From: a virus | Lineage: Duplodnaviria > Heunggongvirae > Uroviricota > Caudoviricetes | Direction: 5' to 3' (one strand) | DNA: 26,403 nucleotides | Virus record (IMG/VR): IMGVR_UViG_2690316269_000009 | Span: 1 to 26,403 of that record | In this document: one piece after another, positions 4,246 through 18,781 of the stretch | Layout of the letters: each line of letters begins with the position of its first letter | Numbering within the stretch: the first letter of the stretch is position 1 | The notes under the pieces: generated by a model | Told to the model about the DNA's origin: nothing | Seen by the model: the letters and a program-made list of their open reading frames with translations, nothing else | Databases searched by the model: none | Position numbers and translations under genes: made by a program

Positions 4246-4401
4246 TTACTCCTCAGGTTCGTAAGCTGTGAAGACAGCGACCTCCGTCTGGCCGGTTCGG
4301 ATTCGTACCTCGCAGAGGTCTTTCCTCGTTACCAGTGTCGTCACTATGACGGTTAAACAGATGACGATCAGGGCGATTAACATCGCCTTTTGCTGCTTCA
4401 T
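4246..4401 (-). CDS. hokD: Hok-family type I toxin (HokD/RelF-like, 51 aa)
   Basis: MKQQKAMLIALIVICLTVIVTTLVTRKDLCEVRIRTGQTEVAVFTAYEPEE: single TM helix plus conserved C-terminus; an in-frame upstream extension to 4458 (MLDTCRLASYVPEGKEKQA) may be the mok-like leader. Confidence 0.8.
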   Translation of the reverse strand: MKQQKAMLIALIVICLTVIVTTLVTRKDLCEVRIRTGQTEVAVFTAYEPEE

Positions 4402-4714
4402 AGCCTGCTTCTCCTTGCCTTCCGGCACGTAAGAGGCTAACCTACATGTGTCTAGCATGAAATTGGCCTCAGATTAATGTTAAGCGTCTTGCAGGACGCG
4501 TAATGTTAACTGGGGCTTTTCTCTATCTGCCTTTGGTGTTCATGCCTGAGACAGATAGCCTCAAGCACCCGCAGCCATTCTACTTAACTCCCGTTACCCC
4601 GCCAATATGAAATCAGTCAGAAAGGCGATCCATAAGAATAATGAATTCTGTAAGGCAATAGTCTCACTGTCTAACATATCTTACCTGATTACTTTACAAT
4701 ATAATAATTCATAG

Positions 4715-5350
4715 TTAAATCAAATGAATGTCATCATCCAATAATTCATTAGTAGTAATACTACCTTTTTTGAAAAAATTTTCATTTGCCTCAGCAATTT
4801 TTGCATCATTAACAAATTCATCACACATCCCAAAATAATGAAAAAATCTATTTAGTTTACATATTCCAATGGTATAGTGCCCTTTAGGTGTTTTGTCCAC
4901 ATAAACACGATTTGCTTTTATAATATGCATCTCATAATCATCTATATGTGGATGAACGATGCGAAATGATGCAGATGCAGTTGGATAGTTTTTGCGCCGC
5001 CCCCCATTTATTACGGGTTCAAATAACACTTCATTTTTACCTTTGAATTCATTGCAGTCAGGACATACTACACATAGATTCTTAGGTTCAAAAATAAAAC
5101 ATAGATATTGAGATTTTGGCACAATATGCTCTATAGGAGCAGCTTGTGCAGCTCTTACCCCAATAGGCTCATGACAATATACACATTCTAGCTTTTGTTC
5201 TTCTCTGTAATGATTTCTAATTTCTGCACGGAGAACTTGCAAATCATCATCTCCCCAGTTGGTATGCTTAAAATCTGGAGAAGACAATTTTTTCTCAATA
5301 ATATCTAATGACTCTGCGCTGAATCTAATTGGATTTTTAATTTTTGGCAT
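4715..5350 (-). CDS. ptuB: HNH endonuclease, Septu PtuB-like (about 211 aa from ATG at 5350; alternative GTG at 5359)
   Basis: HNH signature CVYCHEP...IEHIVPKSQ...NLCVVCPDCNEFKG; start overlaps the 3' end of the upstream ATPase gene (operon coupling). Confidence 0.7.
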   Translation of the reverse strand: MPKIKNPIRFSAESLDIIEKKLSSPDFKHTNWGDDDLQVLRAEIRNHYREEQKLECVYCHEPIGVRAAQAAPIEHIVPKSQYLCFIFEPKNLCVVCPDCNEFKGKNEVLFEPVINGGRRKNYPTASASFRIVHPHIDDYEMHIIKANRVYVDKTPKGHYTIGICKLNRFFHYFGMCDEFVNDAKIAEANENFFKKGSITTNELLDDDIHLI

Positions 5351-6710
5351 AAATTTCACACACCTGAGATACGGAATTTACGAGTTCATTAATAGGGTCA
5401 TTACTATTAACGTTTTCAAGGAGAAGCTGGAGTTGTTTTAATTCACGCCAATTATCATCTGTTACTAACTTAGCAGTCTTAACTTTTGAAAGTAAATTGA
5501 AAGCTAATCTGGCAATGTATTCATTCATAATGCCAGGGGCATCAAATAGTTCCGCAAGTTGATAGTCTGCAGACCGGTTGCTAAAGTATTTTGCTTTATA
5601 AAGATAACTTTTCGACAAAGATGTTATATAACAACCTTTATTCGGCAAATTGGATATTATTTGTGGTGAATGAGTTGCAATTATGAATTGACAACCTGAG
5701 TAAGTTAAAAATGCTTTTGTTAACATAATGATAAACTCTTCCTGCCATCGAGGATGCAAGCTTATTTCCGGTTCATCAATTAGTATTATAGAACCATCAG
5801 TTATATGCCCTGCAATTCCAAGCAACATCACTAATAAACATTGTTCTCCCGAGCTCGCACGTTTAAGTGACATGGGACCATAGCTTTTTTTTATGAGTCG
5901 CATATCCATCAATCTCATGAAGCCAGCGTTCATAAGTTTAAGAATTGATCTAGAAAAATAATTATTCGCATAAGTCGAGCCAACCAATGTTTCACCATTG
6001 GTAAAATCGACTGACAAGGTTACAGCCCTACGTTCAGGTTCAAATCGATTAATTTCAACCAGTGCTTCGTAAATATCATGACGTGATTCGGAGTTTAACT
6101 TTAAGAGACTCTCAATATTCTTCCTGTCAATTTTTATATTGTATTTTAAATATAACTCCTTAACTTCCGTTAATATCTCATCTGAATATACACCAATGAA
6201 GTTATAGTCAGGAGTGTCCGGTCCGTTGTAAGTTGGTTTAAATACAAACTCTATATGGGGCTCAAAATCAATAGAATGAAAAACATCGAGTAAATTTGCA
6301 GGATTTTCTGAATAAGCAAGTTTCTCTAGCCAACCTCTCGCTGCTGAAGATAAAAGGGATACGGCATTTGATACGCCGAAGGGGCCTTCTCCACGCATAC
6401 CCACATAGCGATAATTATTTTCTTTCCTTTGGTGATTTAATGACCTACGCCCTGGAGGGAATTTATCGAATGGGCTGGTAGATACGGCAATTAACTTTGG
6501 TGTTATTTCTCTGTCAAATAATGGATTAAAAGTTTTCAAGAAATGAATATCTTGAATACAGTCTTTAGCAATCTGAGATAACAATCTGCTTTTTCCAACG
6601 CCATTTTTACCTACAATTACTGTAAAAATATTCGCATTATCAGAAACATCACCTTCTATAGCAAGTTTTAAGGTTCGACTATCATGATGGGTATAATATA
6701 GTCTTTTCAT
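5337..6710 (-). CDS. ptuA: AAA15/ABC-type ATPase, Septu PtuA-like (457 aa)
   Basis: Walker A VIVGKNGVGKS near N-terminus, long insertion, ABC signature-like LKRASSGEQ, Walker B ILIDEPEISLH, H-loop IIATHSPQI; ATG at 6708-6710. Confidence 0.7.
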   Translation of the reverse strand: MKRLYYTHHDSRTLKLAIEGDVSDNANIFTVIVGKNGVGKSRLLSQIAKDCIQDIHFLKTFNPLFDREITPKLIAVSTSPFDKFPPGRRSLNHQRKENNYRYVGMRGEGPFGVSNAVSLLSSAARGWLEKLAYSENPANLLDVFHSIDFEPHIEFVFKPTYNGPDTPDYNFIGVYSDEILTEVKELYLKYNIKIDRKNIESLLKLNSESRHDIYEALVEINRFEPERRAVTLSVDFTNGETLVGSTYANNYFSRSILKLMNAGFMRLMDMRLIKKSYGPMSLKRASSGEQCLLVMLLGIAGHITDGSIILIDEPEISLHPRWQEEFIIMLTKAFLTYSGCQFIIATHSPQIISNLPNKGCYITSLSKSYLYKAKYFSNRSADYQLAELFDAPGIMNEYIARLAFNLLSKVKTAKLVTDDNWRELKQLQLLLENVNSNDPINELVNSVSQVCEIYAKN

Positions 6711-7094
6711 TTTATTTTTCTCTCATTAAAATGCTCTTAATTAAGAATACCTATGCCTTTAACAGGCTCATAGTTATGATTTGTGATGCTTTCAAAAGGG
6801 TATGTAACTAAGTATTGAACTCTACACCTAAGATTCTAAGATTTTTAAATTAAAGTAGTTAAACATGCTTTTGATTGTACTCATTCTATGTCCATCGTTG
6901 CTGCATGTCTAGATATCGTGCCCCGCTATTGTTATGTAATGATATGATGGACGCCCTGTCTGAAGCAGCCAGTGAAATATTTTTACTGTCTGCGTTTTCT
7001 ACAGGAGTAAATCACATGAGCACAATCAGAGTTGTTGGTATTGATATTGACCTGTGCCCAATTTTTTGAGACATATATTGGTACGCTCTTGGCA

Positions 7095-7116
7095 CAGGGC
7101 TGCTGCTGCAGCCCTG
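7095..7116. repeat. Perfect 9-bp inverted repeat / hairpin (cagggctgc tgct gcagccctg) just past the recombinase remnant stop
   Basis: Read directly; no adjacent T-run, so not a classical intrinsic terminator; possible recombination site or transcript 3' structure. Confidence 0.4.
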
Positions 7117-7122
7117 ACAGCT

Positions 7123-7691
7123 TTAGACTTCGATCGATTCAGAGATCTCTAATGCATCATCAACTTCTATACCCAGATAACGAACTGTGCTTTCCGTTTT
7201 CTTATGGCCCAACGGAAGTTGGATCACCCGGAGATTCTTAGTTTTCTTGCAGACAAGGCAAGGTTTTGTTCTTCTCATGGAATGTGTGCTGTAAAGCGAA
7301 TCTTCGAGACCAAGCTTTTCTCCCCCCTATGAAAGATTCGGTTATATTGCAGGATTGATATGTGTTGGTTAGTACCGACCCGAGATCGGAACAAGTAGTC
7401 TTTACTGCGTAAATTGCCAAGCTTTATCAATGCAGAAACAGCTTCTCTTGTCCCTTTGGTTATCTCAAATTGGATAGGACTGCCAGTTTTTCAGTTGCAA
7501 CACCGTAGCTCTGCTTGAAACCGAGCTAAATCACGCGTTTTACCTTCCAGTTCAAGCCGGATTTGGAGCCCCCAGATATGAGATATCTGAAGTGGTCTTT
7601 TTGGGCCTATGATACTGTCTTTGTTCCTCGGTGACGTATTCATACTCAAATCTCCTGCAATGTGGAAGATTTGAGTATGGTTGTCTCTCAA
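7123..7691 (-). pseudogene. Degenerate tyrosine recombinase (phage-integrase family) remnant, split across at least three frames
   Basis: C-terminal frame reads ...KNLRVIQLPLGHKKTESTVRYLGIEVDDALEISESIEV* (LGH....T.RY catalytic-Tyr box); upstream frames give LFRSRVGTNQHISILQYNRIFHRG and ALQHTFHEKN with frameshifts and stops between. Confidence 0.45.
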
Positions 7692-7748
7692 GAGCGAAAT
7701 AGGTCAACTATAACTAGTTGTTGTGCATGTACGAATTCTGCCAATTAA

Positions 7749-8591
7749 TTATTGACAATAAAAAATTCTGGAATGTTCGAAATCATCATATCGAATTATA
7801 ATCTGGTTGACTGCATCTATTGTTGGCGCCATTTCAGTTATAATATCTCGATAACCTAAAGAGTTAAATACATTTACTAAGGCCTCACACCGTAGGCCAA
7901 TAGCAATTACGACATTATAAATTGCCAGCCGTTTATTTTCTTGTTTAACTGCAAGAGTGAGTTCGATAGCAGTAGTTTTATCGCTTTGGATTGCATTATA
8001 TAGAGATACTATATTTGCCATATCATCAGAGAATGTATGTATTGAATCACAAAGAGGGACGTAATAGGCATGATAGTGTGTTTCCCAGCCAATTACTTCG
8101 AAAAGCTTTTTGGTTCCAGGATATTCAGGTGTATTTGGCCACAATCTATTAAACATATCAGTTAGCTCTTTTCCGATACGAATCCTTTCATCTGCTGCTG
8201 GATTAGTCATTTCTTTGGATTTTAAACACTCCAGCCACCGTTTCCCATTACTATGAACTAATTTCTTACTACCCTTGAGTAATGCTTGTGCATTTTTTCC
8301 ATCATCAATTGCTATATAAAATTGATTGGCAGCCTGTTCCATTATAACTCTAGTTAATACTTCCGATGCTGAAAAGGCTCCGGTACTCAAAGAAAATATA
8401 GCCTGATTACTAAGTTCATTCAGTACATTAAAGTAATGTAAAACCATCAATTTTTGTTCCACCCCCTTTAGGTTATCTATTTTATTTTTATGCCTCTCAA
8501 ATTTCGCATGGATATATTTATTTATCGCGGCTATTTTTTTTACATCTTCGTCGAAATCAAACGGGCAACGTCCAAACGATTTTTTCCTCAT
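7749..8591 (-). CDS. Hypothetical protein (280 aa), unrecognised; candidate single-gene abortive-infection/defence factor
   Basis: Clean ORF with ATG at 8589-8591 and strong AGGAGG Shine-Dalgarno 6-8 nt upstream; AT-rich; same orientation as the ATPase/HNH pair. Confidence 0.6.
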   Translation of the reverse strand: MRKKSFGRCPFDFDEDVKKIAAINKYIHAKFERHKNKIDNLKGVEQKLMVLHYFNVLNELSNQAIFSLSTGAFSASEVLTRVIMEQAANQFYIAIDDGKNAQALLKGSKKLVHSNGKRWLECLKSKEMTNPAADERIRIGKELTDMFNRLWPNTPEYPGTKKLFEVIGWETHYHAYYVPLCDSIHTFSDDMANIVSLYNAIQSDKTTAIELTLAVKQENKRLAIYNVVIAIGLRCEALVNVFNSLGYRDIITEMAPTIDAVNQIIIRYDDFEHSRIFYCQ

Positions 8592-9030
8592 ATATTCCTC
8601 CTGTTTTACAATCTCCCATAAGTTGGAAAATTATACACTGGAGATTACCTATAAATAACTGCGCACGATAGCTAGTCAGTGCAAGAAGTACAACCAAGTG
8701 AACGGTGCGTATCAGATACCTAGCTTAAAGTTCGCGATAGCCGTACTCTGTGTATTAGCTCAGACATTACCTGACAGGTTGAGTAGATAGAATCGAATCA
8801 AAGCTGACAGTCTGGTTTGGACTGTGGGGTCAACCGATGGATGCAACACACAGCGATCTACAGACATTACTAACATAGCGGTGTATTAATCATCGGGGAG
8901 CAGATCAGACTAACATTAAGCATTAGTAGTAATTTGCAGAGCATCCGTTTCTTACACAAAGCAAACCCCCACGCTAGCCCAACCCTGTGCCACACAATGT
9001 CAATTCACATCTGAACTAATGCTCTTTAAT

Positions 9031-9305
9031 CTAGTAACGTCTAAAATATCGAACATTTCCCTGATAAAATGCCAGTATGCGCTGCATAACTTCACTCATT
9101 GTGGTGGTTTCTTCCGGCAGTTCTGCCTGCGCTGGCTGTTCCTGCTGAACGTTGTTATCAGCCACACGCCAGGTGTACGCGCTTTTATCAACAAAACCAG
9201 CCTTTTTCAGTTCCCATAGTTCGTTCAGCACTTCTTCACGCGCGCAGCAAGTTCTATGGATGTGGCTTTTCCCATTGCTTTCAGTGCGTCAAAAACAGTC
9301 TCCAT
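9031..9305 (-). pseudogene. Small prophage gene with -1 frameshift ([24 protein letters not shown] | [28 protein letters not shown]...)
   Basis: ATG at 9303-9305 with strong GGGAGG RBS; frame hits TGA after 26 codons while the protein-like reading continues in the -1 frame (track ORF 9031..9231). Shift maps to gtgaagaagtg. Confidence 0.45.
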
Positions 9306-9337
9306 AAATTTCCTCCCGGTAAAAATTACTTCTCAAC

Positions 9338-10003
9338 TCAGACAAGCCCAGCCGCTTTCCGGCGTTCATATTCCTGTTTCAGCAACTCAATTGGCGTTGG
9401 CCCCGACGGGCGTTTGGGTGCCGCCAGTTGTCGCCGGACTGGCGGAACACTCAGGCCGTTACTAACATGCTTTGCCCATTTCGTCAGCTGCCGTTCTGCA
9501 AGCCGTTTTAACTCCCCTTCGGTCATCTGCCGCTCAATCCCCTTTGAACGCATCTCGAGGCAAATGTGATACAGCACAGGCTGAGACCACGGGTATTTAT
9601 CGCTCCCGTCGTATCGCCAGGACTCGTTGCGCCAGCGACGGTACTCCTCCATCACGGCATCCACCGTCAGACCGAATGGATTGGCTCCGCTTTCAGAAAT
9701 CAGCGCCACAAACTCAGCCAGGTCCGGAGGCCATGTTTCACCCGCCCGGCAGCGGTCCATGCACTGGCGGCAGACCTGTCGGATTTTCTGCTCAGTCATC
9801 GCACCAATCTGTGCAATCCAGAGCTTCGAAGGTGCGGCCCCGTTCTTCTGGGTCCAGCGGTTCGAATAAACCTCCCCCATGAGTTCCCACAGCTTCCAGG
9901 CCGTTTCCGTCGCTGATAAATCCGTTTTCACGTTCCCACTGCTCACGTGCTGCCCGAATTTCCTGAACTGCCCGTGATGCGGTGTCACCTGGTGCTGCTG
10001 CAT
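9338..10003 (-). CDS. Replication protein P-like (helicase-loader family); true start uncertain because of overlap with upstream gene
   Basis: C-terminal two-thirds (FVALISESGANPFGLTVDAVMEEYRRWR...YPWSQPVLYHICLEMRSKG...ELKRLAERQLTKWAKHV) parallels lambda P as recalled; located 3' of the O-like gene. Confidence 0.6.
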   Translation of the reverse strand: MQQHQVTPHHGQFRKFGQHVSSGNVKTDLSATETAWKLWELMGEVYSNRWTQKNGAAPSKLWIAQIGAMTEQKIRQVCRQCMDRCRAGETWPPDLAEFVALISESGANPFGLTVDAVMEEYRRWRNESWRYDGSDKYPWSQPVLYHICLEMRSKGIERQMTEGELKRLAERQLTKWAKHVSNGLSVPPVRRQLAAPKRPSGPTPIELLKQEYERRKAAGLV

Positions 10004-13117: not shown

Positions 13118-13175
13118 TTTCTGGTGACGTTTGGCGGTATCAGTTTTACTCCGTGACTGCTCTGCCGCCCTTTTT
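13118..13175 (+). ncRNA. dicF: DicF small regulatory RNA (ftsZ-targeting sRNA of dic-type prophages)
   Basis: tttctggtgacgtttggcggtatcagttttactccgtgactgctctgccgccc + ttttt matches the DicF sequence as recalled, including terminal GGCGG/CCGCC hairpin and U-tail; sits upstream of dicB. Confidence 0.7.
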
Positions 13176-17624: not shown

Positions 17625-17714
17625 TGGCGGAGAGAGGGGGATTTGAACCCCCGGTGGAGTTGCCCCCACTCCGGTTTTCGAGACCGGTCCGTTCAGCCGC
17701 TCCGGCATCTCTCC
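17625..17714 (-). tRNA. serU: tRNA-Ser (anticodon CGA)
   Basis: Minus strand reads ggagagatgccggagcggctgaacggaccggtctcgaaaaccggagtgggggcaactccaccgggggttcaaatccccctctctccgcca: cloverleaf with long variable arm, anticodon loop ctCGAaa, 3' CCA. Confidence 0.85.
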
Positions 17715-18705: not shown

Positions 18706-18781
18706 TCCTCTGTAGTTCAGTCGGTAGAACGGCGGACTGTTAATCCGTATGTCACTGGTTCGAGTCCAGTCAGAGGAGCCA
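18706..18781 (+). tRNA. asnT: tRNA-Asn (anticodon GUU)
   Basis: tcctctgtagttcagtcggtagaacggcggactGTTaatccgtatgtcactggttcgagtccagtcagaggagcca: canonical 76-nt tRNA with CCA. Confidence 0.9.

Follow-up and report, generated by a model that had tools for sequence, protein, structure and literature searches.

A DUF5677-family gene of an Escherichia coli prophage: independent mobile cargo and a candidate for phage defence

The stretch of DNA analysed here (the window; 26,403 bp, IMG/VR record IMGVR_UViG_2690316269_000009) is a lambdoid prophage of E. coli and belongs to the ydfABC-dicB type. At 7749..8591 on its minus strand it carries a gene for a 280-aa protein of the DUF5677 family, which belongs to a known sequence family, is under purifying selection, is distributed as mobile cargo, and depends neither on the neighbouring Septu genes (PtuAB) nor on the recombinase beside it. 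We tentatively favour a role in anti-phage defence or abortive infection for this cargo gene, which would act alone and would be expressed from its own leader; the effector core of its product is HEPN-like but non-canonical, and may be that of a nuclease. The original prediction had proposed a single-gene defence or abortive-infection factor; this is still the best reading, although the orphan status and the link to PtuAB suggested alongside it fail. It is now better supported because the gene lies in accessory/defence hotspots of two unrelated prophage types, because it fills the slot held by PD-T7-1, HEC-08 or DS-11 beside the same recombinase, and because its relatives are lone cargo genes of integrons, integrative and conjugative elements (ICEs) and inoviruses and its core is predicted to be HEPN-like.

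The open reading frame (ORF) is clean, starts with ATG and is of the RefSeq WP_001227887.1 type. A Shine-Dalgarno sequence, AGGAGG, is read directly from the sequence at 8597..8602 (minus strand), 5 nt 5' of the start codon. The GC content of the ORF is 34.8%, compared with approximately 50% in the flanks and 46.6% in the whole window; the intact frame, the ribosome-binding site and the AT-rich setting had all been described correctly. Upstream of the gene, and co-inherited with it, is a 317-bp non-coding leader (8592..8908, minus strand), which is approximately 85% identical to the leader of P2-type loci; homology stops at 8908. A candidate -10 hexamer, TATAAT, with a weak -35 lies 38 nt 5' of the ATG (8630..8635, minus strand). 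The perfect TATAAT is kept in the alleles of both the window and strain S88, and we infer that the gene has its own promoter at this position; a consensus promoter scan requiring both hexamers did not call the site. The leader matches no family in an Rfam scan, and a scan for small ORFs found nothing longer than 46 aa. It contains a degenerate CCAGACTGTCAGCT motif at 8802-8815, which is a degenerate copy of a 33-nt repeat of S88 described below.

The protein had been thought to match no family. It is a member of Pfam DUF5677 (PF18928; 37.5 bits against a gathering cut-off of 27.1 bits, E = 3.3e-9, residues 49-195) and of PHROG 4167 (E = 9.7e-177 across 280/280 positions), and RefSeq already names WP_001227887.1 a 'DUF5677 domain-containing protein'. 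Both are sequence families only, without assigned function. The window protein is part of a small, sparse DUF5677 subfamily: a HMMER scan of 1.84 billion cluster representatives (50% identity) returns only 53 clusters at E < 1e-3, most of which are single-domain proteins of 270-300 aa. All 44 aligned full-length relatives exceed the DUF5677 threshold (best E 3.4e-20), and Pfam at E <= 1 shows no other recurring family among them. The protein matches no NCBIfam family, and searches of PDB sequences with the single protein and with a profile gave only noise (e.g. aspartate aminotransferase, E ~0.04). Despite the PHROG 4167 membership, tblastn found no DUF5677 match in 50,697 deposited phage genomes (INPHARED). 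The plasmid collection holds one match only, in an 8.5-kb record that resembles an assembly fragment.

Purifying selection is evident from the ratio of nonsynonymous to synonymous substitution (dN/dS = 0.36) relative to a P2-type allele that is 87.5% identical, and the gene is intact in 56 of the 57 E. coli genomes that carry it. A passenger ORF that is decaying or has no function is therefore very improbable, and so is an ordinary gene for phage structure or housekeeping. A passenger would suit the decaying region, the adjoining pseudogene and the insertion sequence (IS) element seen in some strains; the selection and intactness just described, a strongly conserved motif set and a confident predicted fold oppose it. 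Furthermore, 99% of E. coli genomes and all of the deposited phage records lack the gene, so it is neither a core phage gene nor a housekeeping gene.

Among 5,426 complete E. coli genomes, the 57 carriers fall into two alleles. The window allele is found in 19 genomes, always in the lambdoid prophage and always with PtuAB; positions 4500-9300 of the window are 99.9-100% identical to prophages of E2348/69, AMSHJX01 and 17 other complete genomes. The second allele (92.5% nucleotide and 87.5% amino-acid identity to the first) is found in the other 38 genomes, none of which carries PtuAB. In S88, 98208, IHE3034 and one further assembly it is located in a P2-like prophage between the tail-fibre assembly and tail-sheath genes, which we take to be the classical Z/fun position. 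A hotspot for defence and accessory genes is present within the P2 tail genes and holds approximately 16% of P2 defence systems (PMC13586616).

The two prophage contexts share a two-gene module on the minus strand (7159..8908). In blastn, the window is 87-90% identical to the S88 locus (L002 10001-11853) over nearly the whole recombinase gene, the spacer, the DUF5677 gene and the 317-bp leader. Since this homology ends short of PtuA, the unit that moved was DUF5677 with a small tyrosine recombinase, not DUF5677 with PtuAB.

This bears on the suggestion that DUF5677 serves the adjacent Septu system as an accessory or sensor component. The ATPase/HNH pair noted previously is a true PtuA (5337..6710, minus strand; PADLOC 1.9e-165) and PtuB (4715..5359, minus strand; PADLOC 1.1e-83, Pfam HNH); as stated, the gene lies about 1 kb (1,038 bp) upstream of the pair in the same orientation. 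The shared AT-rich island and the presence of PtuAB in 19/19 genomes with the window allele also suit such a role. Those 19 genomes, however, are a single near-identical prophage lineage (99-100% identity), and the 38 genomes with the other allele lack PtuAB. About 1 kb, with a dead recombinase gene in it, lies between DUF5677 and the pair, which is on the downstream side of the recombinase. The homology between the two prophage contexts ends at 7159, before PtuA, and PtuAB is near no distant homologue in about ten contexts. Co-occurrence with PtuA/PtuB is thus not conserved, and the association is a single event in one lineage. Septu is a physical neighbour of DUF5677 in the window and a separate evolutionary unit. 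A role as PtuAB accessory gene, already largely refuted by distribution and rejected also on the end of the DNA homology, is scarcely probable.

The gene adjoining the ORF is, as described earlier, a decayed recombinase: a pseudogene of a small (~200 aa) tyrosine recombinase at 7123..7643 on the minus strand, annotated in RefSeq as 'frameshifted; internal stop'. Relative to intact copies it has an 82-bp deletion, which removes the KLRGCDL box, and +1 and -1 frameshifts; the intact copy in S88 encodes 194 aa (Pfam Phage_integrase, 3.9e-17). A second loss is seen in IHE3034, where a 153-bp stub remains and DUF5677 is intact. The survival of the gene through two independent losses shows that it does not depend on the recombinase.

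DUF5677 could nevertheless be a functional partner of the small recombinase, either as a directionality or accessory factor or as a gene switched by promoter inversion in the manner of FimB/E. In both E. coli alleles the next gene downstream encodes a ~200-aa recombinase, of the same size as FimB/FimE, inverted repeats surround the module, and in Bacillota DUF5677 is enriched beside small serine recombinases with which it is predicted to be co-transcribed (preprint PMC12632615); this preprint independently shows DUF5677 keeping company with small recombinases. Against a partnership, besides the two losses, the recombinase scores only 20-27 bits on tyrosine-invertase models with a cut-off of approximately 222, the module is collinear in 55 of the 57 genomes with no inverted variants seen, the 35-nt inverted repeat of the window (6906-6940 / 8644-8678) is a one-off, most DUF5677 homologues have no recombinase nearby, and none of 80 recombinase loci from other species has DUF5677 beside it. 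The last result led to rejection of an obligate partnership; an invertible-promoter or phase-variation switch was rejected on the lack of inverted variants and of other copies of the 35-nt repeat. Overall, a partnership of any kind is improbable.

The 35-nt inverted repeat (77% complementary) flanks the dead recombinase and DUF5677. Its left arm (6906-6940) overlaps the best promoter-like site facing PtuA (TAGACA-17-TAGAAT, 6911..6883). The repeat has no copy in any other locus compared, and the left arm therefore seems particular to this prophage lineage.

The recombinase itself has a far wider distribution than DUF5677. It forms a compact unit of approximately 0.7 kb, from ~35 bp past the stop codon to ~55 bp before the start codon (window 7084-7700; L002 9983-10621; L004-L006 5932-6621; also L016-L095), and the DNA directly outside this unit is wholly different on both sides. 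Well over 1,000 E. coli genomes without DUF5677 contain the unit (88-90% nucleotide identity), and homologues of the recombinase with 60-98% amino-acid identity occur at no fewer than 547 loci in GTDB species representatives of the Gamma- and Betaproteobacteria.

Three E. coli loci with the recombinase and without DUF5677 were examined. The recombinase lies beside PD-T7-1 in YD786 (PADLOC 7e-157), where the two together occupy the slot between hok and the replication genes that the island fills in the window; beside HEC-08/DUF3644 in SA186 (1e-173); and beside the CBS-domain anti-phage protein DS-11 in TUM20902 (NCBIfam 405 bits; cut-off 260). These three single-gene systems are similar in size to DUF5677 and, like it, sit next to an 88-90%-identical recombinase unit in variable regions of prophages or islands. 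DUF5677 has the orientation of the recombinase, whereas PD-T7-1 and HEC-08 run divergently from it. Remote homology of DUF5677 to HEC-08 or PD-T7-1 was considered and rejected (hhalign probability <1%). Across the wider set of recombinase homologues, the nearest neighbours match 207 PADLOC models, including SIR2/ThsA, LmuA, NsnA and mad2. Many ordinary genes are also present, among them those for LysR regulators and MFS transporters; the share of neighbours with any PADLOC match is not reported, so this survey gives qualitative support only.

Several other genes flanking the recombinase encode proteins of 326, 314, 191 and 125 aa without Pfam, PADLOC or NCBIfam match (L004 4625-5605 and 8782-9726, L006 6928-7503, L002 9583-9960), and one encodes an ETEC_3214-domain protein (L005 5000-5737). 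By position, these uncharacterised genes are additional candidate defence genes.

More distant DUF5677 homologues are found in a variety of contexts. In Vibrio parahaemolyticus (L015 1-10141) the homologue is a single-gene cassette of a chromosomal integron: the locus contains 16 attC-like repeats of approximately 125 nt, and the gene (1290-2141) is flanked by the copies at 1139-1264 and 2134-2259. Integron membership applies to the Vibrio homologue only, and the window has no such repeats. Most other cassettes of this array encode proteins without Pfam match. In Aliarcobacter and a related contig, DUF5677 is at the edge of inovirus-type prophages; in Arcobacter it is in the cargo region of an ICE beside the integrase, with an adjoining Mrr-type nuclease in a variant contig. 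One homologue lies beside a ParDE module. Lone insertions among housekeeping genes are seen in Aeromonas, in Sulfurimonas and for a 53%-identical homologue (L008); in the last, a 237-aa ORF without Pfam match lies 30 bp downstream (8850-9563), and the E. coli loci have no equivalent. No partner gene is conserved across the contexts examined, as would be expected for accessory cargo that is self-sufficient.

An AlphaFold2 model built from the 44-sequence alignment is all-alpha, with ten helices, and is of high confidence (predicted local distance difference test, pLDDT, 94.8; predicted template modelling score, pTM, 0.91). The model contains a four-helix up-down bundle that superposes on solved domains of the HEPN superfamily, and the DUF5677 core is accordingly modelled as a HEPN-like four-helix bundle. 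The Foldseek search of the predicted structure that had been suggested gave no match at E < 0.08 in PDB and BFVD. In the alignment, R81, E85, F164, Y173 and H185 are invariant, and E77, L79, N89, W119, P158, S183, D190, N193 and Y225 are at least 90% conserved. Two motifs stand out. The first, E-x-L-x-R-x3-E-x3-N, is on helix 73-94; the second, S-x-H-x4-D-x2-N (consensus ASDSVHxLSEDIFN), spans the kink between helices 170-186 and 188-203. The conserved polar residues of the two motifs (E77/R81/E85/N89 and S183/H185/D190/N193) probably form a catalytic or ligand-binding site. The peptide WETHYHAYYVPLCDSIHTF, singled out previously as a His/Cys-containing segment, corresponds to residues 169-187 and includes H185, Y173 and S183, which are invariant or nearly so; the emphasis on its histidine was justified, but its cysteine is not conserved in the family.

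The model differs in several respects from known HEPN proteins, here the minimal HEPN proteins AF0298/TT1696/ST0689 and the HEPN RNases AbiV, LsoA/RnlA, MNT-HEPN toxins and Csm6. DUF5677 is about twice as large, with its ten helices, and lacks a cognate antitoxin gene. It does not have the Rx4-6H motif: no conserved arginine precedes H185 by 4-6 residues in the 44 sequences, and the invariant R81 is on a different helix from H185, so that the conserved residues are split over two helices. There is also no sequence-profile link to HEPN-clan families, either in a Pfam scan of the 44 members or in a profile search of PDB sequences.

Published evidence on DUF5677 is scarce. One of the Bacillota DUF5677 ORFs found beside serine recombinases, a distant homologue, was expressed in Enterococcus faecalis and challenged with six phages (PMC12632615); it did not count among the five positives (three strong, two weak), and was dropped from the published version (PMC13552941). 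Literature searches yielded no functional datum on DUF5677 other than this preprint; beyond it they gave only a machine-learning biomarker list. Given the distance of this homologue, the different host and the small number of phages, the E. faecalis outcome weakens the defence hypothesis without refuting it.

The main rival to a defence role is that DUF5677 is a moron with some other role, selfish or host-modulating, such as counter-defence, a toxin or addiction module stabilising the cassette, superinfection exclusion or regulation; we regard this as doubtful, yet a serious possibility. Several observations point this way. The distribution over hotspots, integron, ICE and inovirus suits any accessory cargo equally well; P2 hotspots also hold non-defence cargo (PMC9122126), and P2 also carries anti-defence genes (PMC13586616). 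One homologue is beside ParDE, the protein matches no PADLOC v2 model at E <= 1, and the homologue tested in Enterococcus was not listed as active. On the other side, no antitoxin or target gene is conserved across contexts, the recombinase has defence genes as neighbours in every E. coli locus inspected, and a fold like that of HEPN proteins is characteristic of RNases in defence and toxin systems. The probability that remains beyond the readings discussed here covers other roles.

In the favoured reading, the part that DUF5677 plays in defence, its chemistry as a nuclease and its trigger are inferred, and the following scheme is proposed. DUF5677 would be a self-contained single-gene 'moron' cargo of temperate phages and other mobile elements. 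It arrived in the prophage as a two-gene unit with the small tyrosine recombinase, which later decayed; having decayed, the recombinase is not needed for whatever DUF5677 does. In the lysogen the gene would be transcribed from a weak promoter of its own within the 317-bp leader, and the product would be a soluble all-alpha protein of approximately 280 aa with a HEPN-like core. By analogy with HEPN effectors, infection would trigger a nuclease activity directed at RNA, and either the cell or the phage would be arrested by it. It is rather unlikely, though conceivable, that DUF5677 is a new single-gene defence or abortive-infection family with a HEPN-derived core and a split active site, spread as mobile cargo. 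The split site of such a family, equally conjectural, would comprise R81/E85/N89 on one helix and S183/H185/D190 on another in place of Rx4-6H. Its carriers, at a similarly low level of expectation, would be tyrosine recombinases in Proteobacteria, serine recombinases in Bacillota, integrons, ICEs and inoviruses.

A palindrome covers the Shine-Dalgarno sequence and start codon of the recombinase (7641..7679; 13/13 nt perfect). In intact copies it has a 15-9-15 structure, CATACTCAAATCTCC-cacattgca-GGAGATTTGAGTATG (L002 10565-10603). It is located at the junction of variable and constant DNA in all cassettes, approximately 18 bp from the point at which cassettes diverge. Its arms are kept complementary through compensatory changes in two loci (L025, L026), and in a third (L024) the 9-nt spacer is flipped. 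As RNA, the palindrome is predicted to form a hairpin (-21.9 kcal/mol, z = -5.6). Such a fold-back could keep read-through transcripts, e.g. from DUF5677, from being translated; alternatively, the palindrome could be the site that the recombinase itself binds.

In the P2 G-FI hotspot of S88, the entire insert of 2.4 kb lies between the arms of an imperfect 33-nt inverted repeat with core GCAGACTGTCAGAT (L002 9436-9468 and 11853-11885); the repeat positions are the points where P2 backbones diverge. A 37-nt copy, 92% identical, is found just past the HEC-08 gene in the non-P2 locus of SA186 (L005 8107-8143). A CAGACTGTCAG-type element was considered as a general attachment (att) site for cassettes; its occurrence only at the P2 hotspot flanks, in the DUF5677 leader and at one SA186 site is insufficient for this role.

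The gene and its neighbours occupy a 4.3-kb AT-rich variable island of the lambdoid prophage (4571..8908; GC 0.35-0.41 compared with ~0.50). To the left it borders on hok/sok, and to the right on a DUF1627 remnant and replication P/O-type genes. The Hok ORF (4246-4458) is at its left edge and is overlapped by the sok antitoxin RNA (4396-4570; Rfam). Between hokD and PtuB, E2348/69 has an IS481-family transposase, which the window lacks. Rfam calls elsewhere in the window are the DicF small RNA, STnc100 and two tRNA genes, and the coordinates called besides 4246-4570 are 13119-13170, 236-408, 17628-17714 and 18706-18778.

The very widespread ~200-aa tyrosine recombinase could help to mark variable slots for cargo, a parallel to the idea of recombinase-associated defence genes (RADS) beside serine recombinases; the slots of this kind in the inspected E. 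coli loci hold defence genes (PD-T7-1, HEC-08, DS-11, Septu) or DUF5677. In RADS (Andersen et al., PMC12632615 / PMC13552941), as here, cargo lies beside a small site-specific recombinase that is dispensable for defence; the recombinase there is of the serine type, whereas here it is of the tyrosine type and the host is proteobacterial. No account of a ~200-aa tyrosine recombinase as a marker of defence cargo was found in the literature.

DUF5677 is thus a real, conserved and mobile gene and a reasonable candidate for defence screening. If it proves inactive, it would be one more uncharacterised prophage moron. If it is active, a Pfam DUF would gain a function, a compact 0.85-kb single-gene system would be added to the defence catalogue, and the HEPN-like fold would be found with a different catalytic constellation. 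Activity would also explain the recurrent cargo of the P2 tail-gene hotspot in extraintestinal and avian pathogenic E. coli (S88, IHE3034, APEC O1/O2), and likewise the cargo gene of the prophage of enteropathogenic E. coli E2348/69.
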